64,000 nucleotides of DNA from Mycobacteriales bacterium. GTDB taxonomy: Bacteria; Actinomycetota; Actinomycetes; Mycobacteriales; CADCTP01. The stretch lies in the NCBI GenBank assembly GCA_036558285.1, contig DATBFW010000133.1, positions 102 through 64,101 of the forward strand, read 5' to 3'. Under the pieces are notes generated by a model. That model saw only the letters and a program-made list of their open reading frames with translations. It had not been told where the DNA came from and did no database searches. A program made the translations under genes and the position numbers. This document shows, piece after piece, positions 2,586-49,190 of the stretch (position 1 is its first letter; each line of letters opens with the position of its first letter).

Positions 2586-3381
2586 GCCTGTGTTCTACCG
2601 CGAGCTCCCGGAGCTGGTCCTCGGCGGCGCTGGCGATCCGGGGCGATACCCCGAGCTCCCGCAGCTGCTCGGCGGACGCGGCCATCTCCTCGGCGCGACG
2701 GCGGGCGTGCTTCCGGCTGCCGCTGACCAGCCGGTCCAGCGTGCGCTCGTCGAAGCCGGCCATCTCGCCGGCGATGTTCTGCTGGAGCCAGTCCACGCAC
2801 CCGGCTGCCTCGGCGCCGTCGAGCGCCTCCACGACCGCCGCGGCGACACCCTTGTAGAAGACGCTGCGCAGCAGCTTCCGCGAGATCGCCGTACCCACCG
2901 GGCCGTCGACCACCTCGACCGACGCGCCGAACGAGCGCACTATCCCGGCGAAACGGGCGGCGGCCGGGCCGGCGGCGGCCATCGGCGTCCGGAGTCCGCT
3001 GCCGAGCACGGTCGCCATCAGCGCCACGTCGACCACCTCGACGCCGCGGGCAGACCCGATCTCCGCCAGTTGCCGCTTGAGCTCCGGCGACGTGGTGTTC
3101 ATCTCGGCCCACAGCGTCCCCGGCCGCAGCACCGGCAGGGCGTTGTCGAGGGCCTCGCGAGCGTCGCGGGCGCTGTTCACGCTCAGGACGACGTCGGCGT
3201 CCCGGACGGCGTCGGCCTCGTCCGTACGGGCCGGCACGGTCGGCGGCGCCGGGACCAGCGGGTCGAACCCGCGGACGTCCGCGCCGGCCGCGACGAGGTC
3301 GGCGGCGATCGCGGACCCCGCCTCCCCGAGACCGAGGATCCCGATCGCGACCGTGGGCCGCGCCTGCGGTGCTGAGCTCAT
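2578..3381 (-). CDS. NAD(P)-dependent oxidoreductase (6-phosphogluconate-dehydrogenase-type NAD-binding domain)
   Basis: 267-aa ORF with N-terminal Rossmann motif VAIGILGLGEAGSAIAADL. 8-nt overlap with the downstream aminotransferase gene. Confidence 0.8.
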   Translation of the reverse strand: MSSAPQARPTVAIGILGLGEAGSAIAADLVAAGADVRGFDPLVPAPPTVPARTDEADAVRDADVVLSVNSARDAREALDNALPVLRPGTLWAEMNTTSPELKRQLAEIGSARGVEVVDVALMATVLGSGLRTPMAAAGPAAARFAGIVRSFGASVEVVDGPVGTAISRKLLRSVFYKGVAAAVVEALDGAEAAGCVDWLQQNIAGEMAGFDERTLDRLVSGSRKHARRRAEEMAASAEQLRELGVSPRIASAAEDQLRELAVEHRRD

Positions 3382-23080: not shown

Positions 23081-23247
23081 CGGCGGCCTCCTCCCCGGTG
23101 GCTGTTTACCGGGCTCTGCCGAATGAGCTGCTGACCGGGCTGCCGGGGTGGCGTGCTCGGGCGCAGCTCAACGGTGCCAGCTCCGGCGGCGACCTGGAGG
23201 GACGGGTTTCTGGCGTCTTCCGGCCCGGACTGTGCTGTAGTTCCCCC

Positions 23248-23727
23248 GTGAGAGTCCCGTACCGGGAGGTCACCAACCTGGCCACCGTCGTCGACTGGCT
23301 GGGCGAGCTGGGTGCCCGCACCGTGCTTCTCGACGTCGAGCCCCTGGTCGCAGTGTGGGACACCGGCGACGCCGAGCTCAAGCGCGGCGTCGACGAGGCG
23401 GTCGCGCTGCTCAGCGAGGTGCCGTCGCTGGAGTCGGTCGGCTTCGCCACGAACTCCTTGCGCAAGTTGTCCGGCGCGATCGCCGGCGACGCCTTCTTCA
23501 TCACGGCCGCCCGCAAGCCGTTGCTGACCAGGCCGTACCGGCACCTGCCGCACCCGGGTGTGGTCGTCGGCGACCAGCTGGCGACCGACGGGGTGCTGGC
23601 CTGGCGGCTCGGCTTCGCCTTCGCCTACGTCCGCCACCCGGAGACCCGCCACCCCTGGGGTCCGGCCCTGCTGCGCCAGCTCAGCCGCCCGCTGCGGCAC
23701 CTTCTGTTCCGTCCGGCATCGCCCTGA
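23248..23727 (+). CDS. HAD-superfamily YqeG-like phosphatase homologue with atypical motif I
   Basis: ORF 23098..23727, probable GTG 23248. LLDVEPLVAVW (motif I as D-V-E-P-L), FATNS, AARKP, VVGDQLATDG. Confidence 0.6.
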   Translation: MRVPYREVTNLATVVDWLGELGARTVLLDVEPLVAVWDTGDAELKRGVDEAVALLSEVPSLESVGFATNSLRKLSGAIAGDAFFITAARKPLLTRPYRHLPHPGVVVGDQLATDGVLAWRLGFAFAYVRHPETRHPWGPALLRQLSRPLRHLLFRPASP

Positions 23728-23817: not shown

Positions 23818-23940
23818 ATGACCTCAGCCAAGCCTGACCCGATCCCGGCGAGCTACCGGCGGGTGACGCCGTGCCTGATCGTGCGGGGCGGAGACAAGGC
23901 ACTGGAGTTCTGCGCGGCGGTGTTCGGGGCGACTCGGTGA
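23818..23940 (+). pseudogene. 40-aa remnant of a VOC/glyoxalase (PhnB-like) gene
   Basis: MTSAKPDPIPASYRRVTPCLIVRGGDKALEFCAAVFGATR-stop matches only the N-terminal unit of VOC proteins. High GC3 in this frame. TGA overlaps the YciI GTG. Confidence 0.6.
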
Positions 23941-24281
23941 AGTACGTGCTGCTGTTCGTGGACACGCCGGAGTTCGCGGCCGAGTTCGAGGCGATGAGCC
24001 CGGAGACGCGGGGGCGCGCCATCCAGAAGGTGTACGAGTGGCTCGACACCCACTCCGACAAGCTCCGCGGCGGCAACAAGCTGCGGGCGCCGGAGACGGC
24101 CACCACCGTACGGCTCGACGGCGGCGAGCCGGTCGTCACCGACGGGCCGTTCGTGGAGGGCAAGGAGGTCGTCAGCGGCTACTCGGAGATCGAGGTGGCG
24201 GATCTCGACGAGGCGCTGCGGATGGTGAAGACCTGGCCCGGCTGCCCGGTGGTGGAGATCCGACCGGTGGAGGAGATCTGA
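23937..24281 (+). CDS. YciI family (DGPF domain) protein
   Basis: GTG 23937: VKYVLLFVDTPEF...EPVVTDGPFVEGKEVVSGYSEIEVADLDEALRM. 114 aa, typical length. The 23871 extension has poor GC3. Confidence 0.85.
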   Translation: MKYVLLFVDTPEFAAEFEAMSPETRGRAIQKVYEWLDTHSDKLRGGNKLRAPETATTVRLDGGEPVVTDGPFVEGKEVVSGYSEIEVADLDEALRMVKTWPGCPVVEIRPVEEI

Positions 24282-25137
24282 CGGACCCGGCGACCACCGA
24301 GCTGGCTCGCGCCGGGCGGGACCACGCGGGCCGGCTCGCCGCGGCGCTCGTCCGGGTGACCGGCGACTTCGCCACCGCCGAGGACCTCGTGCAGGACGCA
24401 GTGCTGGCCGCGCTGGAGCACTGGCCGGTCGAGGGGATCCCCGAGCGGCCGGACGCCTGGCCGGCGTGCTGGCCGTGATCTACCTGCTGTTCAACGAGGG
24501 CTACCTGTCCACCGCGGCGCAGCCGCACTCGCGCGACCTCACCGACGACGCCGAGTGGCTCGCCGGCCTGCTGCACCGGCTGATGCCGACCGAGCCGGAG
24601 GTGGCCGGGCTGCTCGCGCTGATCCAGCTGCACCGGGCCCGCGTCGCCGCCCGGTTCGACGGCGAGGACGGCCTCGTGCTGCTGGCCGAACAGGACCGGT
24701 CGCAGTGGGACCGGGCGGTCATCGCCGCCGCGACCGGGCTGCTGACCAGGGCCGCCCGACAGCAGCGGCCCGGGCCGTACCAGCTGCAGGCGGCGATCGT
24801 CGCCTGCCATGCCGAGGCCTGGCGCTGGGAGGACACCGACTGCGAGCAGATCGTGCTGCTCTACGACATGCTCCTGCACCTCGCGCCGTCTCCCGTGACC
24901 CGGCTGCACCCGGCGATCGCGCTGCGGTACACCGACGGTCCGCGGGCGGCGATGGCCGAGCTGGACGAGCTGGCCGGTCCGCTCGACGGGCACCACCTCT
25001 ACCACGCCACCCGGGCCGAGCTGCTGCGGGCGCTCGGCCAGCAGGACCGGGCCCGCGACGCCGACCGCCGGGCGCTCGACCTGACCGCCAACCCGGCCGA
25101 GCGCGCCCTGCTGCGCCGCCGCATCACCTGGCCGTAG
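24278..25137 (+). pseudogene. YciI-associated ECF-type sigma factor gene with internal deletion and frameshift
   Basis: Frame 2 gives the region-2 start ...DFATAEDLVQDAVLAALEHWPVEGIPERPDAW, then a stop at 24476-24478. Frame 1 from about 24454 gives RLAGVLAVIYLLFNEGY... (C-terminal domain) to 25137. Regions 2.3-4 are missing, and CTG sits at the expected start. Confidence 0.7.
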
Positions 25138-25139
25138 CG

Positions 25140-26081
25140 CTACCGCCGGCTGGTGCGCCAGGCCAGGCCGCACCAGTAGGCGCCGTGCGCGAGCAGCACG
25201 TAGCCCGGGCTGACGCCGGCCCGGACCGGCTCGACGAAGTGCCGCCGCGCGTACGTGGAGACGAAGGCGCGGGCTAACGATCGGTAGCCCGCGGCGTAGT
25301 GCCGGTCGAGGTCGCTGGTCGCGCCGCGGCGGAAGTACGTGCTGGCCAGGGCACGGACCGAGGTCACCGGCTCGTGCCGGACGACGAGGCCGTGGTCGAA
25401 GCCGAGCCGGACGCCGGCTGATTCCAACAGCCGGCTGGTGATGCCGCTCAGCGCCGCGCCGGCGTCCTCCGGGAAGAAGCCCTGGCGGCCGAGCTTCCCG
25501 GCGACGCCGGCCCGCAGCCAGACGTTGCGGCAGTCGAGCCGGACCGCGGCACCGCGGTCCAGCGCGCGGCCGGTGCAGTGCCGGATGAGGGCGGTCTCCT
25601 GCCGGGTGAGCCAGGCCGCCTTGCGGGTCCGCGGCCGGCGGTGCGGCCAGGGCGGGCCGGCCGCACCGTCGGTGCCGTCGTCGGTGCCGGCGAGCTTCTC
25701 GATCGTGGTGATCCAGTCGGGGGCGACGACGCAGTCCGAGTCGGTGAACGCGTACGCGCCGGCGCGGTGCCCGGTGAGCGCGGCGTTCAGGGCGGCGCCT
25801 TGGCCGCGCCGGCGGTCGAGCCGCAGCACCTCGACCGACGCGACGACGCCGGGGGGAAGGAGCGTCGCCAGCTCGACCGGTGATCCGTCGTCGACGAGCA
25901 CGATCCGTACGTCGTCGAACGCGAGCCCGGTGCCGGCGCGCCACTGGTCGATCGCCGCTTGCAGGCTGCGCAGGCAGTCGACCAGCGGCCGCAGCCGGTC
26001 GAGCCGCGCCGAGGCGTGCCGGCCGGCGTCGTGGTGGGCCGGCACGATGACGACCAGTCGGGCGGGATCACATGCGCACAT
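25140..26081 (-). CDS. glycosyltransferase family 2
   Basis: 313-aa ORF with VVIVPAHHD, VLVDDGSP and FTDSDCVV (DxD-type) motifs. Confidence 0.8.
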   Translation of the reverse strand: MCACDPARLVVIVPAHHDAGRHASARLDRLRPLVDCLRSLQAAIDQWRAGTGLAFDDVRIVLVDDGSPVELATLLPPGVVASVEVLRLDRRRGQGAALNAALTGHRAGAYAFTDSDCVVAPDWITTIEKLAGTDDGTDGAAGPPWPHRRPRTRKAAWLTRQETALIRHCTGRALDRGAAVRLDCRNVWLRAGVAGKLGRQGFFPEDAGAALSGITSRLLESAGVRLGFDHGLVVRHEPVTSVRALASTYFRRGATSDLDRHYAAGYRSLARAFVSTYARRHFVEPVRAGVSPGYVLLAHGAYWCGLAWRTSRR

Positions 26082-26754
26082 GCGCGCGCACGGCGGAGGC
26101 GACCTCGTGGACGTCCCGGTTCGCGTCCACCCGGACGAAATCCTGCCGGCCGGTCAACAGGTATTCGTACGCGTCGTGCATCCGGCCGAGGAACTCGACC
26201 TGCTCGGGGTCGATCTCGGCACCGTTGCGCCGCGCGAGTCGCTCGGCGGCGACCTCGGGTGGGCAGTCCAGGTAGATCAGGACGCCGCGGTGGGCAGGCG
26301 GACGGACGAGCTCGATGAGGAAGTCGACGGCGGATCTCATGACCGGTCGCAGCTCGCGAGCGGCCGGCTCGGGCAGGTCGGCGAGGGCGAACGCGGCATC
26401 GGTCAGGGTCGCGACGTCGAGCAGTGTGTTTCTCGATCGGGCCGTGTTCCGCAGCTTCTGCATGTGCGACGAGAGGGCGAGCAGGTGCCGGACGTAGCTG
26501 GTGTCGCATCCCTCGGGACTGAGGCGCATTCCGGGGGAGCCATAAGAGCTGAGATAGCGGCCGAGCTCGTGGTTGCCGAATTCCGGCACGACCTCGGCGG
26601 TTGATGTGAGGCTGCGCGCGAGAAGTTGAGCCTGCGTTGTCTTGCCACTCGCGACTATGCCCTCGAAGCCGACCCATTTGTGTCTGTGTCTGACCCGCCG
26701 GACGCGGAGCCAACCACCACCCCGCGTCGGCTCGGCCGGCGCGACAGGCACCAT
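26068..26754 (-). CDS. thymidylate-kinase-like P-loop nucleotide/nucleoside kinase
   Basis: ATG 26754 with RBS GGAGG. WVGFEGIVASGKTTQAQLLARSL resembles the Tmk P-loop. 14-nt overlap with the GT2 start. Locally lower G+C and rare codons (AGA CAC AGA CAC AAA). Confidence 0.65.
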   Translation of the reverse strand: MVPVAPAEPTRGGGWLRVRRVRHRHKWVGFEGIVASGKTTQAQLLARSLTSTAEVVPEFGNHELGRYLSSYGSPGMRLSPEGCDTSYVRHLLALSSHMQKLRNTARSRNTLLDVATLTDAAFALADLPEPAARELRPVMRSAVDFLIELVRPPAHRGVLIYLDCPPEVAAERLARRNGAEIDPEQVEFLGRMHDAYEYLLTGRQDFVRVDANRDVHEVASAVRAHVRM

Positions 26755-26866
26755 GCAACCTCCGGGCACGATACGGCCGCGCCTCGCGACGCCGCGCGTC
26801 ATGATCGCCGGACTGTATCCCAGATCAGGGCGGTCAGGCTGGGAATGTCGAAGCGTGCACAGTCGG

Positions 26867-28216
26867 CTACTCGTGCTGGGCGTTGGAAAGCTGGAAGTAC
26901 GAGCCGAATTCCAACCCGGTGTTGCGGCAGGTGCGCCGGAGGCGCAACACGATCGGCCAGTCGCTGAACAGGATGAGTTCCCTTTCGTGAGCGTAGAGCC
27001 GCATGGCTTCGTCGAGGTAGTCGCGGCCGGCTCGGTCGTCATCGGTGCGCACCCGTTCCAGCTCGGCGAGTTGTTCCAGCGCCCGCGGCCGCAGCAGCAG
27101 CGAGGGGTCCGACGGCACCCACGTCATCGCCTCCGTCAGCGCGTCCTCGGCCTCCGCGTAGTTCCCGCGGCGACGCTCGAAACCGCCCTGGTAGAGCAGC
27201 ATGTGCACCTTGGACGAGGTGCGCGTCTTGGGATCCGACAGGCACTGCCGCGCCGCCGCGTACTCCTGCTCGGCGCGGCGGCAGTTCCGCCGGGCCTCGG
27301 CGGCGAACGCGAGCCCGGTGTGCGCCCACGAGACGCCCTCCCGATCGTCGGCCGCCTCCGAGATGCTCAGCGCCTCGGCGGCGAAGTGCTCGGTGGCGTC
27401 GACGTCCAGCGGCATCCCGCTCGCCTCCGAGAACGGCAGGTCGTGCACCAGGCAGATGCTGCTCAGCGTCGCCCGATATTGCAGGACGTCGGCGACGAAC
27501 CGCAGGTCGGGATCGAGCACCTCGGTCAGCTCGTCGTAGAGCCGGCCGAGCTCGGTCTCGGCGCGCCGGAACGCCTCCACCCGGAAGAACAGGTGCGCGA
27601 GCGCCTGCCGGCTGGAGCGCTGGTACGGGTCGCCGAGCCCGGACTCGCCGTCGGGAATGTTGCGGCGGTAGAAGTCCATCGCATACCGGTAGAGGCCGAG
27701 GTGGTAGAGGATCCGGCCCCGGTAGAACCAGATCGCCCGCTCGACGCCGAAGCTCACCGGCTGGCCGTCGAGCGCGTCCTCGACGACCGCGGCATACCGC
27801 AGCGCCTCCGTCGGCCGGCCGAGGATCTCGCCGACCCGGAGGATGTCGAGCACGAGCTCCCAGCTGTGTTCGACCTCGACGAGGCCGGTGATGAGCTGGA
27901 AGGCGGCGTCGTTGTCGCCGCTCTCGACCAGCCGCTGGAGTTGGTCGGACCAGGGATGGGTCCGCGGGGTCTCCTTGAGCCACATCTTGCCGCGCCGGGA
28001 CGGTTGTTCGTTCTGCTCGCGCAGGTAGGTGGAGATGAGCTCGGACCGCCGGGTGACCCCCATCTTGCGGAGCACCGTGCGGATGTGCGTCTCGACTGTT
28101 CGCCGCGAGATCTGCAGCCGGTCCGCGATGGCCGAATTCGTGAGACCGTCCACGACCATCAGGAAGACCTGTCGTTCGCGCTCTGTCAGCTGATCGATGG
28201 TGCCGCCGCCGTTCAT
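26867..28216 (-). CDS. transcriptional regulator with N-terminal LuxR-type HTH and C-terminal TPR-like domain
   Basis: ATG 28216 with RBS GGGGAGGGG. LTERERQVFLMVVDGLTNSAIADRLQISRRTVETHIRTVLRKMGV, followed by about 370 aa of helical repeats rich in Y/A/L/R. Confidence 0.8.
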   Translation of the reverse strand: MNGGGTIDQLTERERQVFLMVVDGLTNSAIADRLQISRRTVETHIRTVLRKMGVTRRSELISTYLREQNEQPSRRGKMWLKETPRTHPWSDQLQRLVESGDNDAAFQLITGLVEVEHSWELVLDILRVGEILGRPTEALRYAAVVEDALDGQPVSFGVERAIWFYRGRILYHLGLYRYAMDFYRRNIPDGESGLGDPYQRSSRQALAHLFFRVEAFRRAETELGRLYDELTEVLDPDLRFVADVLQYRATLSSICLVHDLPFSEASGMPLDVDATEHFAAEALSISEAADDREGVSWAHTGLAFAAEARRNCRRAEQEYAAARQCLSDPKTRTSSKVHMLLYQGGFERRRGNYAEAEDALTEAMTWVPSDPSLLLRPRALEQLAELERVRTDDDRAGRDYLDEAMRLYAHERELILFSDWPIVLRLRRTCRNTGLEFGSYFQLSNAQHE

Positions 28217-28435
28217 GGCCCCTCCCCGTCTGGTGGCCGAGAACTGTCCTGGTTCGCCTCCCAACGACGCGGTCGCGCGGCATTCGCGACTGCGTAGTTC
28301 CACGTACGTGCTTTCCGCCCGCTTGCTGCCCTACGTATCTCTACTGATCCAAAGATAACGCTTCGCACGGATGCGGAACAGCGTGTGCCTGTTCAGCATT
28401 AGTCGCACGGACACCTCCGAAAGGAGGCACGGGGG
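28217..28435. promoter_or_regulatory. divergent promoter region (AT-richer spacer)
   Basis: 219 bp between divergent starts. It includes the lowest-G+C stretch I saw in the window (ctacgtatctctactgatccaaagataacg). No specific -10/-35 assignment is possible. Confidence 0.5.
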
Positions 28436-28639
28436 ATGCGACAGCCGGTGGAAAGCGTCTGGAGATCGGCGGCGCTCGCGGCATTCGTCGCGGTGCTGGT
28501 CGTCGGGATCTACGACCGGTGGATCCGGCGCCGGCGGCCGGGGCACCGCGGGGTCGTGCTCAACGCGGGCGCGGTCGCGCTGGACGGTGGCACGGTCACC
28601 GTGCTCGGCGGCGCCGCCGGGAAGCACGGGGGGCAGTGA
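28436..28639 (+). CDS. small single-pass membrane protein (67 aa)
   Basis: Strong RBS AAAGGAGG 7-8 nt upstream of the ATG. TM helix SAALAAFVAVLVVGIY, then RWIRRRRPG and the Gly/Val-rich tail GVVLNAGAVALDGGTVTVLGGAAG. The stop overlaps the next ATG (TGATG). Confidence 0.65.
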   Translation: MRQPVESVWRSAALAAFVAVLVVGIYDRWIRRRRPGHRGVVLNAGAVALDGGTVTVLGGAAGKHGGQ

Positions 28640-29601
28640 TGGACGGTCACACCTGGCGGGTGGGCACGGTCAACATCGGTGCGCTCGCGACCGGCGGCGG
28701 CGTGGTCTGCGCCGGCTCGGCGGTCGGCCGGCAGACGGTGGCCGCCGAACCGGACCGGTCCGGGCCGCGGCGGCGGGCGGACGTGGCCGTGCTCACCGTG
28801 CTCACCGAGGAGCTGCGGGCGGTGGTGGAGGTGCTGCGCCGGCACCGGGACTTCCGGTCCGCGCCGCTGCCCGGCGGGTCGCAGCTCTACGAGGCGGCGG
28901 TGCGCGGGGACGGCGTCGACCTGCGGGTGGTCGCCACCCAGGCGCTGGAGCCGGGACCGCAGTCGGCGGCCGCGGCGTACCGGCGGCTGCGGGACGCGCT
29001 GCACCCGTCCGTCGTGCTGCTGGTCGGGGTGGCCGGCGGGATCAGGGCCGATGTGGCGGTCGGCGACGTCGTGATCGGCGACGAGATCATCTACTACGAC
29101 GCGCGGCGGGAGACGGTGGCCGCGGCCCGGCGGCGGGGCAAGAGCCACTCGACCACGCCGGCCCTCCGGCACCGGGTCAACGAGTTCTTCCTTCGGTACG
29201 GGTCGACGATCGCGGTGCGCCGGGGCGTGCAGGTGCGGGTGTTCCGCGGTCCGATCGGCTCGGGCAGCGCGGTCGTCACCGACACCAGCTCGGACATCGT
29301 CCGCTTCCTGCGCCGGTTCAACGAGAAGACGCTCGCGGTGGAGACCGAGGCCGGCGGCGTCGGCCAGGCGTTCTACGAGGAGATCGGGTCCGAGCCGGCG
29401 GCGGGCTGGCTGACCATCCGCGGGATCTCCGACCTGGCCGACCGGGACAAGGGCCACGGCTGGCACCAGCTCGCCGCCGACCACGCCGCCGCCGTGATGG
29501 ACCGGCTGCTGCCGATGCTCGCCGCCCCGGACGACCGCCCGGACGCGGCCGGCGAGCCCGCTGCCGACCTCGGCCTCGACGACCTGGCCGAGCCGGCCTG
29601 A
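28639..29601 (+). CDS. PNP_UDP_1 / MTA-SAH-nucleosidase-fold phosphorylase-like protein with Gly-rich N-terminal extension
   Basis: ATG 28639 inside ORF 28519..29601. DVAVLTVLTEELRAV, LLVGVAGGI, GDVVIGDEIIYYD, GPIGSGSAVV, LAVETEAGGV and IRGISDLADRDK follow the nucleoside-phosphorylase superfamily pattern. Confidence 0.75.
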   Translation: MDGHTWRVGTVNIGALATGGGVVCAGSAVGRQTVAAEPDRSGPRRRADVAVLTVLTEELRAVVEVLRRHRDFRSAPLPGGSQLYEAAVRGDGVDLRVVATQALEPGPQSAAAAYRRLRDALHPSVVLLVGVAGGIRADVAVGDVVIGDEIIYYDARRETVAAARRRGKSHSTTPALRHRVNEFFLRYGSTIAVRRGVQVRVFRGPIGSGSAVVTDTSSDIVRFLRRFNEKTLAVETEAGGVGQAFYEEIGSEPAAGWLTIRGISDLADRDKGHGWHQLAADHAAAVMDRLLPMLAAPDDRPDAAGEPAADLGLDDLAEPA

Positions 29602-29607
29602 TCGCCC

Positions 29608-29719
29608 CGTCACCCCGGGTGGACGCCGCCGCGCGTAGCCACCGACGCCGGCCGTGGCGGCGCCGTCACCCCGGGTGGACGCCGCCGCGCGCAGCCACCG
29701 ACGCCGGCAGTGGCGGCGT
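29608..29719. repeat. 56-bp tandem duplication (2 copies, about 93 % identical), each with hairpin potential
   Basis: cgtcaccccgggtggacgccgccgcgcgtagccaccgacgccggccgtggcggcgc is followed directly by cgtcaccccgggtggacgccgccgcgcgcagccaccgacgccggcagtggcggcgt. It lies between convergent gene ends. Confidence 0.85.
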
Positions 29720-29838
29720 TTCGGTCCCGGCGGATAGTGATCTGCGCTTAACGTCTGCGGGAACCGACGGCGACCGGCGTCGGAACTCCGACGGGAGGGG
29801 CCGCGGGAATGCAGGGTGCGCGGGTGGCTGCGGCTGGC

Positions 29839-30651
29839 TCAGCCGTACAGGCCGGCGAAGACGTCGCCGAGCGGGCGGCGGGGCGGCACCCGGCCCGGCT
29901 GGCGGAACCACTCGTGCCCCACGACCAGGTCGAAGACCGGTCCCGGCAGCCGCAGCAGTACCTGCAGCGTCCGGGTGCCCTGGTCGGCGGTGGCCTGGCT
30001 GGCGTGCGCCGTCATCGCCGCCCGCTTCGGCCCGGTGAACGCCCGCACGTCCACCCGGTGGGTCAGCTCGCCGCGCGGCGTGTACGCCCGATCGACGACC
30101 CGCGGGTCGAAGCCCGCCGGCAGCCCGGGCAGCCGGGACACCAGCCGCAGCACCCGGCGCAGCGCGGTGCGGTCGACGGTGGCTTCCAGCAGCACCGGGG
30201 TGCCGGCCAGCGCGGCGGCCCGGGCGCCGACCCGGTGCACCTGCACGTGGTCCGGGTGGCCGTACCCGCCGGCCGGGTCGTACGAGGTGACCACGTCGGC
30301 CCGCTCGTCCCGCAACACCGCGGCCAGCCGCTCGGCCGCCTCGTCCGGGTCGGCGGCGGAGAACGGGTCGGCCAGCCCGGACGGCTCGCCGGCCATCCCG
30401 GAGTCGGAGTAGCCGAGGAACTCGACCCGGCCCGCGCCCAGGACGCGAGCGGCGGACTGCGCCTCGATGCGGCGGACCGGCCCCATCCCGCCACGCGACC
30501 CGTACGCGGACGAGGCCAGCCCGGCGCCGCCGTCGGTGGCGAACACGACGACTACCCGGTGCCCAGCGGCGGCGGCGCTGGCCATCGTGCCGCCGGTGAG
30601 CAGCGCCTCGTCGTCCGGATGCGCGTGGAAGACCACCAGCGTGTGCGGCAC
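29839..30651 (-). CDS. PIG-L / LmbE family deacetylase
   Basis: 270-aa ORF with VVFHAHPDDEAL and GYGHPDHVQVH zinc-site motifs. Confidence 0.9.
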   Translation of the reverse strand: MPHTLVVFHAHPDDEALLTGGTMASAAAAGHRVVVVFATDGGAGLASSAYGSRGGMGPVRRIEAQSAARVLGAGRVEFLGYSDSGMAGEPSGLADPFSAADPDEAAERLAAVLRDERADVVTSYDPAGGYGHPDHVQVHRVGARAAALAGTPVLLEATVDRTALRRVLRLVSRLPGLPAGFDPRVVDRAYTPRGELTHRVDVRAFTGPKRAAMTAHASQATADQGTRTLQVLLRLPGPVFDLVVGHEWFRQPGRVPPRRPLGDVFAGLYG

Positions 30652-46192: not shown

Positions 46193-47361
46193 AGACCCAG
46201 CTTCTCCGCCGCGGCGCGGGTCCCCTCCACCCGGTTGGCGATCTTCTGGAACGCGACGTCCCTGGCGTAGTCCGGCGACCCGTGCGACGGTTTCTCGTCG
46301 ATCGAGAACGGCGAGAACCCGCAGTCGTCGGTCGAGCCGAGCCGCTCCTTCGGGATGAAGTTCGCCGCCCGGACCAGCTGGTCGCGGACCTCATCCGCCC
46401 CCTCGGCGCGCGGCATGACCGGCGAGATCACGCCGACGTAGCACATCTGCGGCACCCCGTTGGCGTCGTCCCGGCTGTGCTCGCCCACCAGCTGGTAGAC
46501 CGGATCCCGGTCCCGCTCGCTGGCCAGCTGCATGAGGAAGTAGCCGGCGTTCAGCTGGAACATCGACGGCAGCAGGTCGCTGTACGGCACGTCCGCGCTG
46601 TGCACCGAGTCCCGGTCGCCCCCGGGGCACGTGTGCACCCCGATGTTGCGGCGTTCCTCGGCGCTGAACCGGTCGAACACCCGGTTGTCCAGCTCGATGA
46701 AGTGGCCGAGCATGCCCCGGCCGGTCCACGGGTTGCGCGGGTCGGCGCGGGTGGCCAGCCGGCCCTCGGTGAAGTCCATCGACACGTGCGCGGCGCCGGC
46801 CTCGAACGCCCGGCGGATGTCCTGCTCGCACTGGTCGACGAGGTCGTCCTCGAACTGCTGGCGTGGGTAGTCGGGCACCTCGTCGTCGAGCGGGTAGAGC
46901 AGCAGCAGCATCGAGGGTGCGATCACCGCCTGCTTCATCGGCCGGTGCGCGTACCCGATCGAGCGGGTCAGCGAGTCGGCGGCGAAGTTCTTATACCGGA
47001 ACGGGCCGCCGACCAGCTTCGGCAGCTGCCGGTTGTGCCCGTCGGAGAAGATCGCGAAGAACTGGCCGCCGGTCGGCTCGAGGTGGTCGGCCAGGCCGGT
47101 GCCGCCGAGCGTGTCGGTCACGGGGTACGTCGCGAAGCTCGACCAGCGTTGCTCGCCGTCGGAGATGATCGGTGAGCCGGTCGCCTCGAACCGTTCGATC
47201 GAGTCCCGGACGGCGGCGTCCTGCTCCGTCTCGAGCTGGTCCTTGCCGATCTTGCCGGCGTCGTAGTCCGCGTACGCCGCCTGGAGCCGGGCCGGTCGGG
47301 GGAGCGAGCCGACCGGTTCGGTCGGAATCCCGGTGCCTGCCCGCGGGTCGAAGTCGGTCAT
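46189..47361 (-). CDS. cobalamin-independent methionine synthase II family (MetE C-terminal-like) protein
   Basis: 390-aa ORF. PTEPVGSLPRP, IISDGEQRW, GVHTCPGGD, LGSTDDCGFSPF. Confidence 0.8.
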   Translation of the reverse strand: MTDFDPRAGTGIPTEPVGSLPRPARLQAAYADYDAGKIGKDQLETEQDAAVRDSIERFEATGSPIISDGEQRWSSFATYPVTDTLGGTGLADHLEPTGGQFFAIFSDGHNRQLPKLVGGPFRYKNFAADSLTRSIGYAHRPMKQAVIAPSMLLLLYPLDDEVPDYPRQQFEDDLVDQCEQDIRRAFEAGAAHVSMDFTEGRLATRADPRNPWTGRGMLGHFIELDNRVFDRFSAEERRNIGVHTCPGGDRDSVHSADVPYSDLLPSMFQLNAGYFLMQLASERDRDPVYQLVGEHSRDDANGVPQMCYVGVISPVMPRAEGADEVRDQLVRAANFIPKERLGSTDDCGFSPFSIDEKPSHGSPDYARDVAFQKIANRVEGTRAAAEKLGL

Positions 47362-47382
47362 GCCGTCGTCTCCTCGCTACGA

Positions 47383-47402
47383 GTTGTGAGACGCGTCACA
47401 AC
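47383..47402. promoter_or_regulatory. candidate operator palindrome GTTGTGA-N6-TCACAAC
   Basis: Perfect 7-bp inverted arms about 20-40 nt upstream of the 47361 start codon and its GAGGAG RBS. Confidence 0.4.
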
Positions 47403-47409
47403 CTATCGG

Positions 47410-47444
47410 CGGGGCCCTGAACCGATCAACGGTTCCGGGCCCCG
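47410..47444 (-). terminator. hairpin downstream of the ABC-transporter operon
   Basis: cggggccctgaaccg-atcaa-cggttccgggccccg: 15-bp stem with one mismatch, starting 15 nt after the 47459 stop. Confidence 0.6.
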
Positions 47445-47458
47445 CGCGACGGTCGGGC

Positions 47459-48382
47459 TCAGCCGAGCCCGTTGCTGGACAGGAAGGACTTGGCCACCGT
47501 CTCCGGGTCCTTCTTGTCGAGGATCACCTGCTTGTCGAGGTCGAGCAGGTTCTCGGTGGTGAGCTTCGCCGACACCGCGTTCAGCGCGTCGGTGACGGTC
47601 TGGCTCGCCTTGGCCTTGTTGATCAGCGGCAGCACGTTCTGCGCGGCGAACAGGAACTTCGGGTCCTCCAGCGCGACCCACCCGTTGGCGACGATGTTCG
47701 GGTCGGTGGTGAACACGTCGGCCGCCTGGATGCTGCCGTTCTTCAGCGCGTTGATCGTCAGCGGGCCGCCGGCGTCGAGCGACTTGAACTGCTTGAACGT
47801 GACGTTGTACTTGGCCTTCAGGCCGGGCTCGCCGGTCTGCCGGGTCTTCCACTCCGGCGGGCCGCCCAGCGTGAGCTGGCCGGCGACCGGCTGCAGGTCC
47901 GCGATCGACTTGAGGTTGTACTTGTCCGCGGTCTGCTTGGTGACCGTGATCGAGTCCTTGTCCTCGGCGGTCGACTGGTCGAGGACGGTGAGCTTCGCCG
48001 GCACCTTGGTCTTCAGCGCCGCGTACACGTCGTCGGAGGTGACCTGCGTGGCGTTCTTGTCGAAGTACTGCAGGAGCACGCCGCTGTACTCCGGGATCAG
48101 GTCGATCGAGCCGTCCTGCAGGCCGGGAATGTAGGTCTCCCGGCTGCCGATGTTGAGCTTGGTGCTGACCTTGACGCCCTTCGCGGTGAGCGCCCCCGCG
48201 TAGATCTGCGCCAGCAGCGTGCTCTCCGGGAAGTTGGCCGAGCCCACGACGATCGTGTCGGACGGCGCGGCGGAGGCGCTCCCGGTGGACAGCGGGTTGT
48301 TGTCCCCACCGCCACCGCAGGCGGCGAGGGCCAGCGCAGCGACCGTAGCGACGCTGGCCAGGATGACTCTGTTCCGTCTCAT
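47459..48382 (-). CDS. glycine betaine/choline-type ABC transporter substrate-binding lipoprotein
   Basis: 307-aa ORF. Lipobox LALAACGGG. IVVGSANFPESTLLAQIYAGAL, DLIPEYSG. Confidence 0.85.
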   Translation of the reverse strand: MRRNRVILASVATVAALALAACGGGGDNNPLSTGSASAAPSDTIVVGSANFPESTLLAQIYAGALTAKGVKVSTKLNIGSRETYIPGLQDGSIDLIPEYSGVLLQYFDKNATQVTSDDVYAALKTKVPAKLTVLDQSTAEDKDSITVTKQTADKYNLKSIADLQPVAGQLTLGGPPEWKTRQTGEPGLKAKYNVTFKQFKSLDAGGPLTINALKNGSIQAADVFTTDPNIVANGWVALEDPKFLFAAQNVLPLINKAKASQTVTDALNAVSAKLTTENLLDLDKQVILDKKDPETVAKSFLSSNGLG

Positions 48383-48437: not shown

Positions 48438-49190
48438 CTAAGTGGTCGGGACGACGGACCCTTCCTGGGACGAGGAGATCAGGACCGGTCGCCGGCGCGG
48501 ACCGGCGGTGCGGAAGCGCCCGGTCACACCGGGTGACACGACCAGCCGCTGGATGCCGGCGACGAGCAGGTCGAGCACGATAGCCAGCACGCCGACGAGC
48601 ACGGCACCGGCCGCCATCTGCGAGTAGTCCCGCTGGGACTGGCCGTCGAGGATGAACCGGCCGAGCCCGCCGAGGGAGACGTACGCCGCGATCGTTGCGG
48701 TCGCCACGATCTGCAGCATCGAGCTGCGGACGCCGGACAGGATCAACGGCATCGCGTTCGGCACCTCGACCCGCCACAGCACCTGGGAGCCGGTCATGCC
48801 CATCCCCTTGGCGGCGTCCCGGGCGGCCGGGTCGACGGCCTGGATCCCCGCGTACGTGGCCGAGAGCACGGCCGGGATGCCGAGGATCACCAGCACCAGG
48901 ATGGACGGCAGCAGGTAGGCGAGGCTGGCCGGCAGCCGGCCGGAGATCAGCAGCACGACGTAGACCAGCAGGCCGAAGTCGGGCAGCGCGCGCAGCGCGT
49001 TGGCGCTGCCGGCGATCGCGACCGAGCCGCGGCCCGTGTGCCCGACGAACAGGCCGAGCGGCAGCGCGATCAGGCAGACGAACGCCAGCGCCAGGAACGT
49101 GTACTCCAGGTGCTCGAGCACCCGCGCCGGCACGCCTTCCGGGCCGGACCAGTGCGCGCTGTTGCCGAGGTAGTCCCAGATCACGCCCAT
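48438..49190 (-). CDS. ABC transporter permease
   Basis: 250-aa multi-TM ORF with the EAA-like loop AARDAAKGMGMTGSQVLWRVEVPNAMP. Confidence 0.85.
   Translation of the reverse strand: MGVIWDYLGNSAHWSGPEGVPARVLEHLEYTFLALAFVCLIALPLGLFVGHTGRGSVAIAGSANALRALPDFGLLVYVVLLISGRLPASLAYLLPSILVLVILGIPAVLSATYAGIQAVDPAARDAAKGMGMTGSQVLWRVEVPNAMPLILSGVRSSMLQIVATATIAAYVSLGGLGRFILDGQSQRDYSQMAAGAVLVGVLAIVLDLLVAGIQRLVVSPGVTGRFRTAGPRRRPVLISSSQEGSVVPTT

Follow-up and report, generated by a model that had tools for sequence, protein, structure and literature searches.

The described systems closest to the locus reported here are gene pairs whose products share a short motif, together with nucleotide-cleaving enzymes of CBASS and Detocs. 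Bell/NLR gene pairs of filamentous bacteria carry the motifs BASS1-10, and the screen that described them covered Bell/NLR pairs only (Dyrka et al. 2020, bioRxiv 10.1101/2020.01.06.895854). An abortive-infection pair with a non-NLR partner, Bab/Agp (BASS11), is known from E. coli ECOR25, where the downstream protein has the architecture TPR-GreA/B-C-PIN (Ibarlosa et al., bioRxiv 10.1101/2024.11.07.622273). In fungi, PNP_UDP effector/NLR pairs use PUASM or HRAM-like amyloid motifs (Wojciechowski et al. 2022, PMC9815663). Cap17 (CBASS) and DtcC (Detocs) are ATP nucleosidases (Rousset et al. 2023, bioRxiv 10.1101/2023.01.24.525353).

Here we describe a co-translated gene pair in a stretch of 64,000 nt (the window) from Mycobacteriales bacterium GCA_036558285.1 (contig DATBFW010000133.1, positions 102-64,101, forward strand). 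Our reading, to which we give a probability of about 55%, is that the pair forms a split sensor/effector module in which a membrane protein and a nucleosidase would be coupled by an amyloid-like, G/N/V-rich motif of about 22-25 residues.

The co-translated pair and its neighbours

The pair lies next to a divergently oriented trio. The positions and arrangement of the five genes agree with the initial annotation in their ORF coordinates and Pfam matches, and all peptide strings quoted there are found in the sequence.

25140-26081, minus strand: GT2, family-2 glycosyltransferase, third gene of the trio (PF00535, E 2e-10)
26068-26754, minus strand: Tmk-like/dNK-like P-loop kinase, second gene of the trio (PF02223, E 1e-12; PF01712, E 2e-9)
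26867-28216, minus strand: 449-aa HTH-TPR regulator, first gene of the trio, divergent from the pair (Pfam GerE, E 3e-19)
28436-28639, plus strand: 67-aa membrane protein, upstream partner of the pair (ORF with a GGAGG Shine-Dalgarno sequence)
28639-29601, plus strand: 320-aa PNP/MTAN-fold nucleosidase-like protein, downstream partner (PF01048, PNP_UDP_1, E 1e-18)

The kinase and GT2 genes overlap by 14 nt, the kinase gene is separated from the HTH-TPR gene by a 112-bp gap, and a 219-bp spacer lies between the HTH-TPR gene and the 67-aa ORF, whose ATG is preceded by GGAGG at a distance of 8 nt. The ATG of the PNP gene overlaps the TGA of the small ORF (TGATG), and the two genes are translationally coupled, as had been proposed.

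The 67-aa protein consists, in order, of one hydrophobic helix (residues ~8-26, nt 28457-28513; hydropathy peak 1.97), RWIRRRRPGHRG and a C-terminal tail. Because a basic stretch directly follows the helix, the positive-inside rule would place this tail in the cytoplasm. The protein has no match in Pfam, PADLOC or NCBIfam and no recognisable sensing domain; similarly, neither an NLR nor a Bell domain nor any other recognised sensor was found in the pair as a whole. The small ORF is intact in L002, L005, L066, L072 and about 10 metagenome variants (at least 14 loci overall); conservation extends to the tail, but the N-terminus of the protein is variable.

A terminal motif shared by both partners

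The greatest information in the locus comes from a motif that the two co-translated proteins share at their ends, a feature absent from the initial annotation.

28553-28621, plus strand: C-terminal motif of the small protein, VLNAGAVALDGGTVTVLGGAAG (profile and family motif alignment)
28663-28734, plus strand: N-terminal motif of the PNP protein, GTVNIGALATGGGVVCAGSAVGRQ (family conservation; predicted disordered segment)

The last ~25 residues of the small protein and the first ~30 of the PNP protein carry one motif, N-x-G-A-x3-G-x-G-x-V-x3-G-x3-G-x-Q. Across the family, both sides fall into a single near-gapless alignment with the consensus N.GA...G.G.V...G...G.Q, into which the C-terminal motif of the small protein fits. 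At about 20 related loci, in Micromonosporaceae and Actinomadura and on a Streptomyces plasmid, the gene in front of PNP encodes instead a membrane protein of ~560 aa with four helices and a large cytoplasmic domain. This is the usual partner in the family; it has no PADLOC or Pfam match, and its tail is predicted to be disordered. The tails of these partners match the N-terminus of their own PNP protein, pair by pair: the mean local score in 19 pairs is 72 within a pair and 32±13 between pairs, the summed within-pair score is reached by 0 of 100000 permutations (p<1e-5), and the own partner is ranked first in both directions in 13 of the 16 large-partner pairs. Phytohabitans maris holds two pairs in one genome (L008, L073) with differing motif variants, each matching its own partner. 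Residues are identical at 312 of 556 aligned motif positions, 107 of these 312 being encoded by different codons, and in 20 of 22 pairs the stop codon of the first gene shares 1 or 4 nt with the start codon of the second.

In a six-frame search of the window (788 segments) with the partner-tail profile of other lineages, the motif of the small protein is the top match (E 1.6e-4) and the N-terminal motif of the PNP protein the second (E 0.023); the latter also matches the PNP-N-terminus profile (E 7e-4). Aligned with the tail of the 624-aa partner at L013, the small protein's tail scores 72 against 24±4.8 for shuffles, with 0 of 20000 reaching the score. Judged by these alignments, the window tail and the C-terminal tail of the ~560-aa four-helix partner found elsewhere are homologous, and only a helix and a tail remain of the large partner in the window's clade. 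Within the small-partner clade the pair-specific ranking fails (ranks 4-11), and the two motifs of the window pair itself show no more than modest similarity (41 against 28±5 for shuffles, p=0.022). That modest p value, together with a spurious match of the short-motif profile to an unrelated ABC permease (E 3e-4), could be taken to mean that the Gly/Ala/Val-rich tail is mere high-G+C low complexity and that the PNP protein acts alone. We consider such a chance resemblance extremely improbable, given the homology to the tails of other lineages, the extreme C-terminal position and overlapping stop and start codons as in 20 other pairs, and the persistence of ORF and tail beside a varying N-terminus.

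The composition of the motif (G 22%, V 13.5%, N 12%; K 0.7%, L 2%, P 2%) has the bias described for BASS motifs. As in the Bell/NLR pairs, a motif of ~25 residues, with much G, N, Q and V but little K, P or L, is C-terminal in the upstream product and N-terminal in the downstream one, the genes are collinear and often overlapping, and they occur in actinomycetes. However, the window pair has neither an NB-ARC/NACHT partner nor a Bell domain, and since the earlier screen was limited to Bell/NLR pairs, it could not have found it. In Bab/Agp, too, the genes are adjacent, a small protein combines a hydrophobic helix with a motif of ~20 aa at its C-terminus, the non-NLR protein encoded downstream starts with that motif, and signalling is proposed to pass through it. 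Here, in contrast, the downstream protein is a PNP/MTAN-fold nucleosidase, and the upstream protein lacks a Bell-like helical domain and is a 560-aa polytopic protein in most relatives. With the fungal PNP_UDP/NLR pairs, the window pair shares an effector fold controlled via a short amyloid-type motif that is common to the product of the adjacent gene. The fungal motif lies C-terminal to PNP_UDP, with a NACHT(-WD40) NLR as partner, whereas the motif here lies on the N-terminal side, with a membrane protein as partner; the consensus sequences also differ (FxGxGxQxxGxGxF in fungi, NxGAxxxGxGxVxxxGxxxGxQ here). Amyloid formation by the motif is suggested by its composition, position and covariation.

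The nucleosidase-like protein as candidate effector

The PNP protein has more than 250 homologues. Residues 1-43 are predicted to be disordered (pLDDT <50), and the catalytic domain follows.

28780-29520, plus strand: catalytic PNP/MTAN fold, residues 48-294 (hmmalign to E. coli MtnN; PDB profile alignment)

Foldseek matches the protein to the MTAN structure 3dp9 (E 5e-19, TM 0.82). E58, A132-G133, E235, E237, R261 and S264-D265 correspond to E12, A77-G78, E172, E174, R193 and S196-D197 of E. coli MtnN and sit in invariant columns of the family alignment. At the MtnN 5'-pocket, hmmalign places P105, R157, A161, R164 and H170 opposite I50, V102, F105, Y107 and P113. As aligned, the domain retains the MTAN catalytic residues and has a basic 5'-pocket with arginines.

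Housekeeping MtnN (MTA/SAH nucleosidase) and futalosine hydrolase (MqnB) were rejected as identities, in keeping with the initial annotation: the window PNP scores 64.6 bits against an equivalog cut-off of 169 bits for the former and 36.9 against 124.7 for the latter. It is like MtnN/MqnB in fold (TM 0.82) and catalytic residues (Glu12, Glu174, Asp197), but differs in its 20-24% identity, far under the equivalog cut-offs, in the Arg and His residues that replace the hydrophobic 5'-alkylthio pocket, and in its 45-residue disordered N-terminal extension and obligate membrane partner. The link to CBASS that had been drawn is supported by a match to the PADLOC CBASS PNP-effector model (E 8e-22). 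Like Cap17 and DtcC, the protein has a PNP-fold domain with the catalytic Asp and groups with PNP domains fused to immune-like sensors; unlike them, it lacks a CD-NTase or SAVED context, a receiver domain and a histidine kinase, and its activation would run through a terminal motif.

The closest PNP relatives outside the family (200-316 bits) are C-terminal domains of larger proteins, with NACHT+HEAT, TPR/TPR-S, WD40 or metallophosphoesterase domains N-terminal to PNP. For this reason the membrane partner would be the sensor and the PNP protein the effector, and the split between the two genes appears to fall exactly at the sensor/effector fusion point of the NACHT-HEAT, TPR and WD40 relatives. 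The polarity could be reversed as in Bab/Agp, with a PNP sensor that oligomerises on a nucleoside or nucleotide ligand and then templates a small membrane-disrupting executioner, activated via its C-terminal motif. In favour of this, enzymes of the PNP fold are obligate oligomers, the 67-aa protein amounts to little beyond a hydrophobic helix and the motif, and Bell/NLR and Bab/Agp share the geometry of a C-terminal motif on the membrane-targeting protein and an N-terminal one downstream. This arrangement is nevertheless distinctly unlikely, as the polytopic partner with its large cytoplasmic domain in most of the family does not resemble a pore-forming peptide, the PNP domain keeps its full catalytic set, and its nearest relatives occupy the C-terminal position behind sensor-like architectures.

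A membrane-tethered metabolic or regulatory nucleosidase deserves more weight, although we still regard it as unlikely. The motif would then be a stable, non-amyloid docking peptide, and the enzyme would act in salvage or signalling (turnover of adenine nucleotide, NAD or ADP-ribose) with a homeostatic or developmental role rather than in cell death. Synteny and vertical inheritance mark the locus in Micromonospora, where it adjoins purK and its stable surroundings are housekeeping genes (purK, glgC-type genes) and not a defence island. A NUDIX + NrtR-type winged-helix regulator adjoins the pair in 9 loci, and a nucleotide kinase is among its neighbours in the window's clade. NrtR family members are regulators of NAD metabolism that respond to ADP-ribose. 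Against a purely metabolic role, the PNP protein clusters away from housekeeping clades, with domains fused to NACHT, TPR or WD40 and with the CBASS effector model. In addition, disorder is predicted for each of the two motif segments, whose composition is that of amyloid signalling motifs, and copies adjoin AICE genes (L073) or sit on a Streptomyces linear plasmid (L075).

Candidate regulatory elements and the separable trio

28301-28310, strand not assigned: palindrome CACGTACGTG near the HTH-TPR start, candidate trio operator (direct reading of the sequence)
28330-28385, plus strand: conserved non-coding block CTACGTATCTCTACTGATCCAAAGATAACGC..., candidate promoter/operator of the pair (conservation)
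28414-28427, plus strand: hairpin CCUCC-GAAA-GGAGG, an anti-SD pairing with the Shine-Dalgarno sequence of the small ORF (stem conservation)
29604-29715, plus strand: tandem 56-bp G+C-rich hairpin copies, 3' of the PNP stop codon (95% identity)

The block at 28330-28385 is about 94% identical over 52 nt in L005, where PNP identity is 63%; its core is also kept in L066, it is missing from the trio-only loci L070 and L071, and it shows no sigma-70 consensus and no Rfam match. The anti-SD hairpin (predicted stability -8 to -9 kcal/mol) has an invariant stem and a variable loop in the window, L001, L002, L005, L066 and L072. With these two elements upstream, expression of the pair looks tightly restrained. 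The palindrome is kept in the window, L001, L002 and L072, and relatives of it, CGTACGT...CCTACGGA, precede the HTH-TPR genes of trio-only loci. Downstream of the pair, the reported duplication of a 56-bp hairpin element is real, but its fold energy is no better than that of shuffles. The repeat has two copies only, its number and sequence differ in L001 and L072, and the tandem duplication was not found in related loci; the second copy and the UUUCGG that follows it may act as a terminator.

The HTH-TPR protein belongs to a small family (23 proteins), with a GerE/LuxR HTH at residues 8-62 and TPR matches under Pfam's threshold (TPR_12, E 7.5e-4). Its gene is the best conserved of the block (94-96% identity where PNP has 86-93%). 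The five genes had been tentatively read as one horizontally acquired conflict or biosynthetic island of lower G+C content. They do stay together in every small-partner locus seen (the window, L001, L002, L072 and L076-L088; L005 and L066 with different flanks), and the kinase gene is atypical in composition (GC3 0.83; A or T as third base in 16.6% of codons, compared with 4.9% for reference genes; four AGA codons and one AAA). The other four genes have native codon usage and GC3 (PNP 0.97, GT2 0.95, HTH-TPR 0.92, small ORF 0.91; neighbours 0.89-0.97), and the low overall G+C of the HTH-TPR gene is due to its GC2 of 0.44, that is, to amino-acid content. The lowest 500-bp interval in the 64 kb (28001-28500, 63.8% G+C) is mostly divergent spacer, and there are equally low 1-kb intervals at 1-1000 and 46.8-47.6 kb. 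The compositional oddity is confined to the kinase gene, and the low-G+C island is weak. Moreover, the trio occurs without the pair at L070 and L071, with the HTH-TPR gene first, and the pair without the trio in all of the ~20 large-partner loci; the two spacer halves bear separate conserved elements, and the block occupies the same chromosomal site in relatives at 81-94% PNP identity. A single acquired five-gene island is very unlikely on these grounds, and the trio is an independent, separable module that would contribute transcriptional control to the pair at most.

Proposed mechanism and outlook

In the proposed sensor/effector module, the motif would mediate direct heterotypic assembly, most likely as a cross-beta/beta-arch stack as in BASS/HET-s-type signalling, with the membrane partner in the position of sensor or nucleator. 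Assembly would concentrate or activate the PNP domain, whose predicted reaction is cleavage of the N-glycosidic bond in a phosphorylated adenine nucleotide, either ATP/dATP, as do Cap17 and DtcC, or an NAD/ADP-ribose-type compound. This putative substrate is suggested by the retained MTAN catalytic set and the basic 5'-pocket, as read from an alignment rather than a ligand-bound structure. The outcome would be growth arrest or regulated cell death.

A module of this kind would fall outside the described Bell/NLR and Bab/Agp pairs. It would join the signature of an amyloid-type receptor-to-effector motif to an immune-type nucleotide-cleaving enzyme in soil actinomycetes.

A translationally coupled pair with a shared terminal motif

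The ORF map and family scans recovered every gene that the initial annotation had placed in the block, at the following positions.

Genes of the block and the spacer that divides them (coordinates refer to the window)
25140-26081, minus strand: GT2 (ORF map and family scan)
26068-26754, minus strand: Tmk/dNK-like kinase, overlapping the GT2 gene by 14 nt
26867-28216, minus strand: 449-aa protein with a GerE/LuxR HTH at residues 8-62; TPR matches sub-threshold only
Between the 449-aa gene and the 67-aa ORF: spacer of 219 bp
28436-28639, plus strand: 67-aa ORF, a membrane protein, with a GGAGG ribosome-binding site
28639-29601, plus strand: 320-aa PNP_UDP_1 protein, its ATG overlapping the TGA of the 67-aa ORF by 1 nt (TGATG)

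The 67-aa protein and the PNP/MTAN-fold protein (PNP) form a translationally coupled pair of a membrane partner and an enzyme-type protein that share a co-varying terminal motif. The motif was overlooked in the initial annotation and came to light in an alignment of PNP homologues, all of which carry a conserved glycine-rich segment ahead of the PNP fold. In the window, the N-terminal sequence of the PNP (VNIGALATGGGVVCAGSAVG) is similar to the C-terminal sequence of the 67-aa protein (VLNAGAVALDGGTVTVLGGAAG). The gene upstream of each PNP homologue was inspected across 65 genomic loci (related loci carry L numbers), and in the genera named below it encodes a large partner of ~560 aa; the final ~25 residues of this large partner correspond to the ~25 residues with which its own PNP opens.

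Examples of matching termini in large-partner pairs
L015: partner tail GGVHNWGGTVTNNGPVAGRDV; PNP N-terminus GGVHTFGGTVTNNGPVAGRDV
L018: partner tail AGTGNTFHGPVSGRDSHV; PNP N-terminus AGSGNVFHGPVSGRDSYV
L067: partner tail NAGAVATSGGTVNVGGDAVGIQ; PNP N-terminus NVGAYAAGGGTVNVGGDAVGSQ

Chance resemblance of the two segments in the window is a very unlikely alternative. The mean motif score was 72 within pairs vs 32±13 between pairs (n=19 pairs), and none of 100000 permutations reached the observed within-pair sum (p<1e-5). The true partner ranked first from both sides in 13 of 16 large-partner pairs, and the Phytohabitans maris genome holds two pairs with different motif variants, each fitting its own partner. 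On the other side, the window's own two motifs are only modestly alike (41 vs 28±5 for shuffles, p=0.022), and pair-specific ranking fails within the slowly varying small-partner clade. Identical motif residues are written with different codons at 107 of 312 positions (34%), which argues for a likeness maintained in the protein sequence and against a trace of recent gene conversion. The two genes share 1 or 4 nt at their stop/start junction in 20 of 22 pairs.

A single near-gapless consensus, N.GA...G.G.V...G...G.Q, covers both sides. Its composition (G 22%, V 13.5% and N 12%; K 0.7%, L 2.2% and P 2.2%) shows the bias reported for bacterial amyloid signalling sequences, which favour G, N, Q, V and I and are poor in K, P and L (Dyrka 2020, bioRxiv 10.1101/2020.01.06.895854). 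The motif segments are disordered in monomer models. Four features of BASS/FASS-type pairs, namely a shared terminal motif, collinear overlapping genes, pair-specific covariation and biased composition, are present here, and we infer that the motif is probably an amyloid-type signalling sequence.

The membrane partner

The 67-aa protein consists of a single hydrophobic helix followed by RWIRRRR, so that by the positive-inside rule its tail should face the cytoplasm. This tail scores 72 against large-partner tails vs 24±4.8 for shuffles, none of 20000 of which scored as high, and shares 14 of 22 residues with L007 and L013; on these alignments it is clearly homologous to the large-partner tails. 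Of all 788 six-frame segments in the window, this tail was the best match (E 1.6e-4) and the PNP N-terminus the next best (E 0.023) to a profile built from the tails of other lineages alone. When a third carrier of the motif was sought in the window, the sole extra profile match was a segment of an ABC permease at 48438-49190 on the minus strand (GRGSVAIAGSANAL), matched by the reciprocal motif profile at E 3e-4 and judged spurious; the HTH-TPR, kinase and GT2 proteins are without the motif. This match at a similar E-value means that a short-motif profile lacks specificity when used alone.

An unbroken small ORF is present in L002, L005, L066, L072 and about ten metagenome variants, with a conserved tail and a variable N-terminus. 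In the MAG of L001 a 1-bp deletion (~5950) shifts the frame; it was dismissed as evidence against the ORF and is likely an assembly error, because the near-identical metagenome contigs L076-L084 keep the frame.

The large partner, found in Micromonospora, Actinoplanes, Dactylosporangium, Phytohabitans, Couchioplanes, Catenuloplanes and Actinomadura, is a polytopic protein of ~560 aa (up to ~600 aa as called on contigs) with four long hydrophobic helices, and its gene runs up to or into the PNP start codon. The frames of L008 and L021 are longer (~950 aa), starting at far-upstream start codons. Neither Pfam nor PADLOC gave a match for the partner, and hhalign found no similarity between the partner family and a 1320-aa PNP-fused protein. 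In Micromonospora sp. NPDC050187 (L003, 5429-5989) the large-partner gene is apparently internally deleted or frame-shifted and the PNP gene is intact.

A NUDIX + NrtR-type winged-helix regulator lies just downstream or divergent of nine large-partner pairs (L003, L006, L010, L016, L018, L019, L067, L068 and L075). Such NrtR-type neighbours, together with a stable housekeeping neighbourhood in Micromonospora, speak for a less likely alternative in which the motif is a non-amyloid docking peptide of a metabolic enzyme; the amyloid-like composition of the motif speaks against it. In L006, L010 and L020, a 275-aa membrane-associated protein is encoded between the PNP and the NUDIX/NrtR-type regulator.

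Two loci lie in mobile contexts. The second pair of Phytohabitans maris (L073, JAVHUY010000053, 672-7714) directly follows RepSA, an HTH_17 excisionase-like gene and an integrase, a set of genes typical of an actinomycete integrative conjugative element. On a linear plasmid of Streptomyces sp. AD2-2 (L075, CP106748, 3322-6762), a NUDIX/NrtR-like gene and a partner homologue lie divergently, the homologue being split into three ORFs of 276, 227 and 74 aa and followed by the PNP gene; the end of the 74-aa piece, KIINSGIFNFGDNNSFTNNAVGDAAQ, matches MTYNKGIISHGSNNRFGNIAIGAKAQ at the start of the PNP, and a Cas3'' gene lies 3 kb off. One PNP relative turned up in the plasmid collection and none in the phage collection.

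The PNP enzyme

The AlphaFold model of the PNP is confident over residues 48-294 and disordered over residues 1-43, and Foldseek groups the fold with MTA/SAH nucleosidases (E 5e-19, TM 0.82, 20-24% identity), as the initial annotation had proposed. Aligned with E. coli MtnN, the protein retains the catalytic set: E58, A132-G133, E235, E237, R261 and S264-D265 correspond to Glu12, Ala77-Gly78, Glu172, Glu174, Arg193 and Ser196-Asp197, and all of them (including E58, E237 and D265) occupy invariant columns of the family. The catalytic residues Glu12, Glu174 and Asp197 of MtnN are thus kept, but, as far as the alignment tells, its hydrophobic 5'-alkylthio pocket is not: Ile50, Val102, Phe105, Tyr107 and Pro113 align with P105, R157, A161, R164 and H170. 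A charged 5' substituent would therefore be more likely than methylthio. The basic pocket and the retained catalytic residues are the only indication that ATP or dATP might be cleaved to adenine and ribose triphosphate.

A housekeeping role as MtnN (NF004079 64.6 bits vs a cut-off of 169; TIGR01704 42.3 vs 73.8) or as the futalosine hydrolase MqnB (TIGR03664 36.9 bits vs 124.7) is contradicted by the model scores. PADLOC matched the CBASS PNP-effector model PDLC00759 at E 7.9e-22, over profile positions 238-352 of 506. When 1.84 billion representatives were searched exhaustively with a profile, 272 proteins matched at E≤1e-30. The best matches outside the ~300-aa family were C-terminal PNP domains (200-316 bits, with MTAN at ~64) of proteins of 600-1900 aa with NACHT and HEAT repeats, TPR/TPR-S, WD40 or a metallophosphoesterase domain. 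Since its closest non-family matches are the C-terminal domains of large multidomain proteins, the PNP is by sequence an effector-type domain of the kind usually fused downstream of a sensor; it is catalytically complete by its alignment with MtnN and related to sensor-fused domains. The break between the two proteins of the pair family falls exactly at the sensor/PNP junction, with the motif on both sides.

Some relatives of 400 aa have a helical N-terminal domain and then a similar Gly/Asn motif. Two ~400-aa proteins from the representative search, P0274 and P0286, carry a ~100-aa helical N-terminal domain; in P0274, GDK-type repeats and a Gly/Asn motif (NSGVATYGGTTNISGSAIGSN) are also present ahead of the PNP fold. 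This layout may be another adaptor arrangement.

Neighbouring genes, spacer and regulation

The initial annotation had read all five genes as one lower-G+C island, which is an unlikely alternative to a self-contained pair. Deviating composition is borne out for the spacer and the kinase: the lowest 500-bp G+C of the 64-kb window (63.8%) is at the divergent spacer, and the kinase is the sole compositional outlier (GC3 0.83; A/T-ending codons 16.6% vs 4.9%; four AGA codons). The GC3 of the PNP (0.97), GT2 (0.95), HTH-TPR (0.92) and small ORF (0.91) falls within the range of neighbouring genes, and here the island does not hold. Equally low G+C (66-68% over 1 kb) is seen at 46800-47700 and 1-1000, where MetE-like and ABC substrate-binding genes lie. 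For the 449-aa protein, described as an HTH with TPR-like repeats, the HTH is borne out and the repeats stay below threshold.

Side by side, pair and trio (HTH-TPR, kinase and GT2) occur in every small-partner locus. Where PNP identity is 81-94%, relatives have the small-partner block at the chromosomal site seen in the window, among PIG-L, GT4, PAP2 and LPG-synthase genes; in L005 and L066 pair and trio are together with different flanks. The HTH-TPR family is small (23 proteins), and its distant members (52-53% identity) head an HTH-TPR/Tmk-like kinase/GT2 trio without a nearby PNP pair in L070 and L071; the trio is absent from all ~20 large-partner loci. Since each occurs without the other, pair and trio are separable, and a single module of five genes is not supported. 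Within the block, HTH-TPR varies least (94-96% identity between the window and L076-L089, vs 86-93% for the PNP, 78-94% for the kinase and 56-82% for the small protein).

The spacer has two independent conserved parts, a palindrome on the HTH-TPR side and a block with a hairpin on the pair side. The palindrome CACGTACGTG (28301-28310) adjoins the HTH-TPR start codon, and a related sequence, CGTACGT...CCTACGGA, lies upstream of HTH-TPR genes in pair-less loci (L070 ~3170-3195; L071 ~745-765); it may be the regulator's own operator. The pair-specific block 28330-28385 and an anti-SD hairpin (CCUCC-GAAA-GGAGG, predicted at about -9 kcal/mol) are shared with L005 and L066 and absent in trio-only loci. 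Taken whole, the 121-nt leader has a fold no more stable than that of shuffled sequences, the small anti-SD hairpin alone being conserved, and Rfam (E≤1) and sigma-70/terminator scans returned nothing for 28100-29900.

The flanks of the block vary. A 56-bp tandem duplication 3' of the PNP gene, reported in the initial annotation, was confirmed; this G+C-rich hairpin unit (29604-29715) is duplicated in the window alone, with one related copy in L001 and a different repeated unit at the same place in L072. Between the convergent PNP and PIG-L genes, a ~125-nt non-coding block (29713-29838) has 96% identity in L072, 94% in L001 and 82% in L002, and no match in Rfam. Insertions separate PNP and PIG-L in L002 (7007-8175, a LuxR-type response regulator and a small membrane protein) and L086 (4964-7813, ~2.9 kb), and in L002 the ~125-nt block remains beside the PIG-L 3' end despite the insertion. 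To the left of GT2 (23871-25137), the window and L001 have a YCII gene, a DUF6596-containing gene and a 209-aa gene (23098-23727); L002 is without these, and a DAGK-like gene abuts GT2 there.

Proposed mechanism and relation to known systems

By analogy with HET-s/NWD2, Bell/NLR and Bab/Agp, the motif would drive a heterotypic cross-beta assembly in which the membrane partner acts as nucleator and the PNP is switched on through assembly. The activated enzyme might then hydrolyse an adenine nucleotide, much like the ATP-cleaving Cap17 and DtcC, and the anti-SD hairpin could restrain expression. Less likely, the polarity could be reversed, with the small peptide serving as a Bab-like executioner. 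We give a probability of about one in three (0.35) to the reading that these pairs are a new amyloid-type signalling class of filamentous actinomycetes, in which an immune-type nucleosidase acting on adenine nucleotides would assemble and become active on a template provided by a membrane protein (a ~560-aa four-helix protein of unrecognised fold, or a 67-aa helix and tail) through the ~22-residue motif N.GA...G.G.V...G...G.Q.

For fungi it is established that the products of neighbouring genes can signal to each other in amyloid fashion. For bacteria, Bell/NLR pairs have so far been described, the published screen having covered these pairs only (bioRxiv 10.1101/2020.01.06.895854), and functional tests exist for Bab/Agp only (bioRxiv 10.1101/2024.11.07.622273). 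In Bell/NLR pairs the NB-ARC or NACHT NLR partner carries TPR or WD repeats, whereas the downstream protein here is PF01048 only; Pfam found no domain in the upstream partner and no STAND NTPase within the block. As to a Bell or Bab helical domain upstream, the 67-aa protein has one hydrophobic helix and leaves no room for a helical bundle, and the large partner is polytopic with four helices. CBASS Cap17 has a related PNP effector domain (the PDLC00759 match), but belongs to a CD-NTase operon and carries a signal-sensing domain on the effector, whereas here a single-domain PNP has GT2, kinase, HTH-TPR, PIG-L and GT4 neighbours. Detocs DtcC has an N-terminal receiver domain and accompanying DtcA kinase and DtcB buffer genes, whereas the PNP has no receiver domain; the response regulator near the L002 block is an insertion that is not conserved elsewhere. 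PNP_UDP proteins with amyloid motifs are reported from fungi only, where the motif is C-terminal and the partner an NLR (PMC9815663), and full-text literature searches turned up no paper on such a motif pair of a PNP and a membrane protein from bacteria.

If the proposed reading is true, amyloid control of a bacterial PNP effector would be seen here for the first time, as would such a pair without an NLR or Bell component and with a topology opposite to that of the fungal PNP_UDP/NLR pairs. The family would extend amyloid signalling to an enzyme effector, probably a nucleotide-depleting one, and to a membrane partner that databases fail to recognise. The motif consensus and gene-pair signature are usable for genome mining outside NLR-centred screens, and a 67-aa peptide with a 320-aa enzyme is a very small, tractable system in which to study how a 20-residue motif turns an enzyme on. 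The pair also illustrates, for PNP effectors, a logic of being "fused or split by an adaptor motif".
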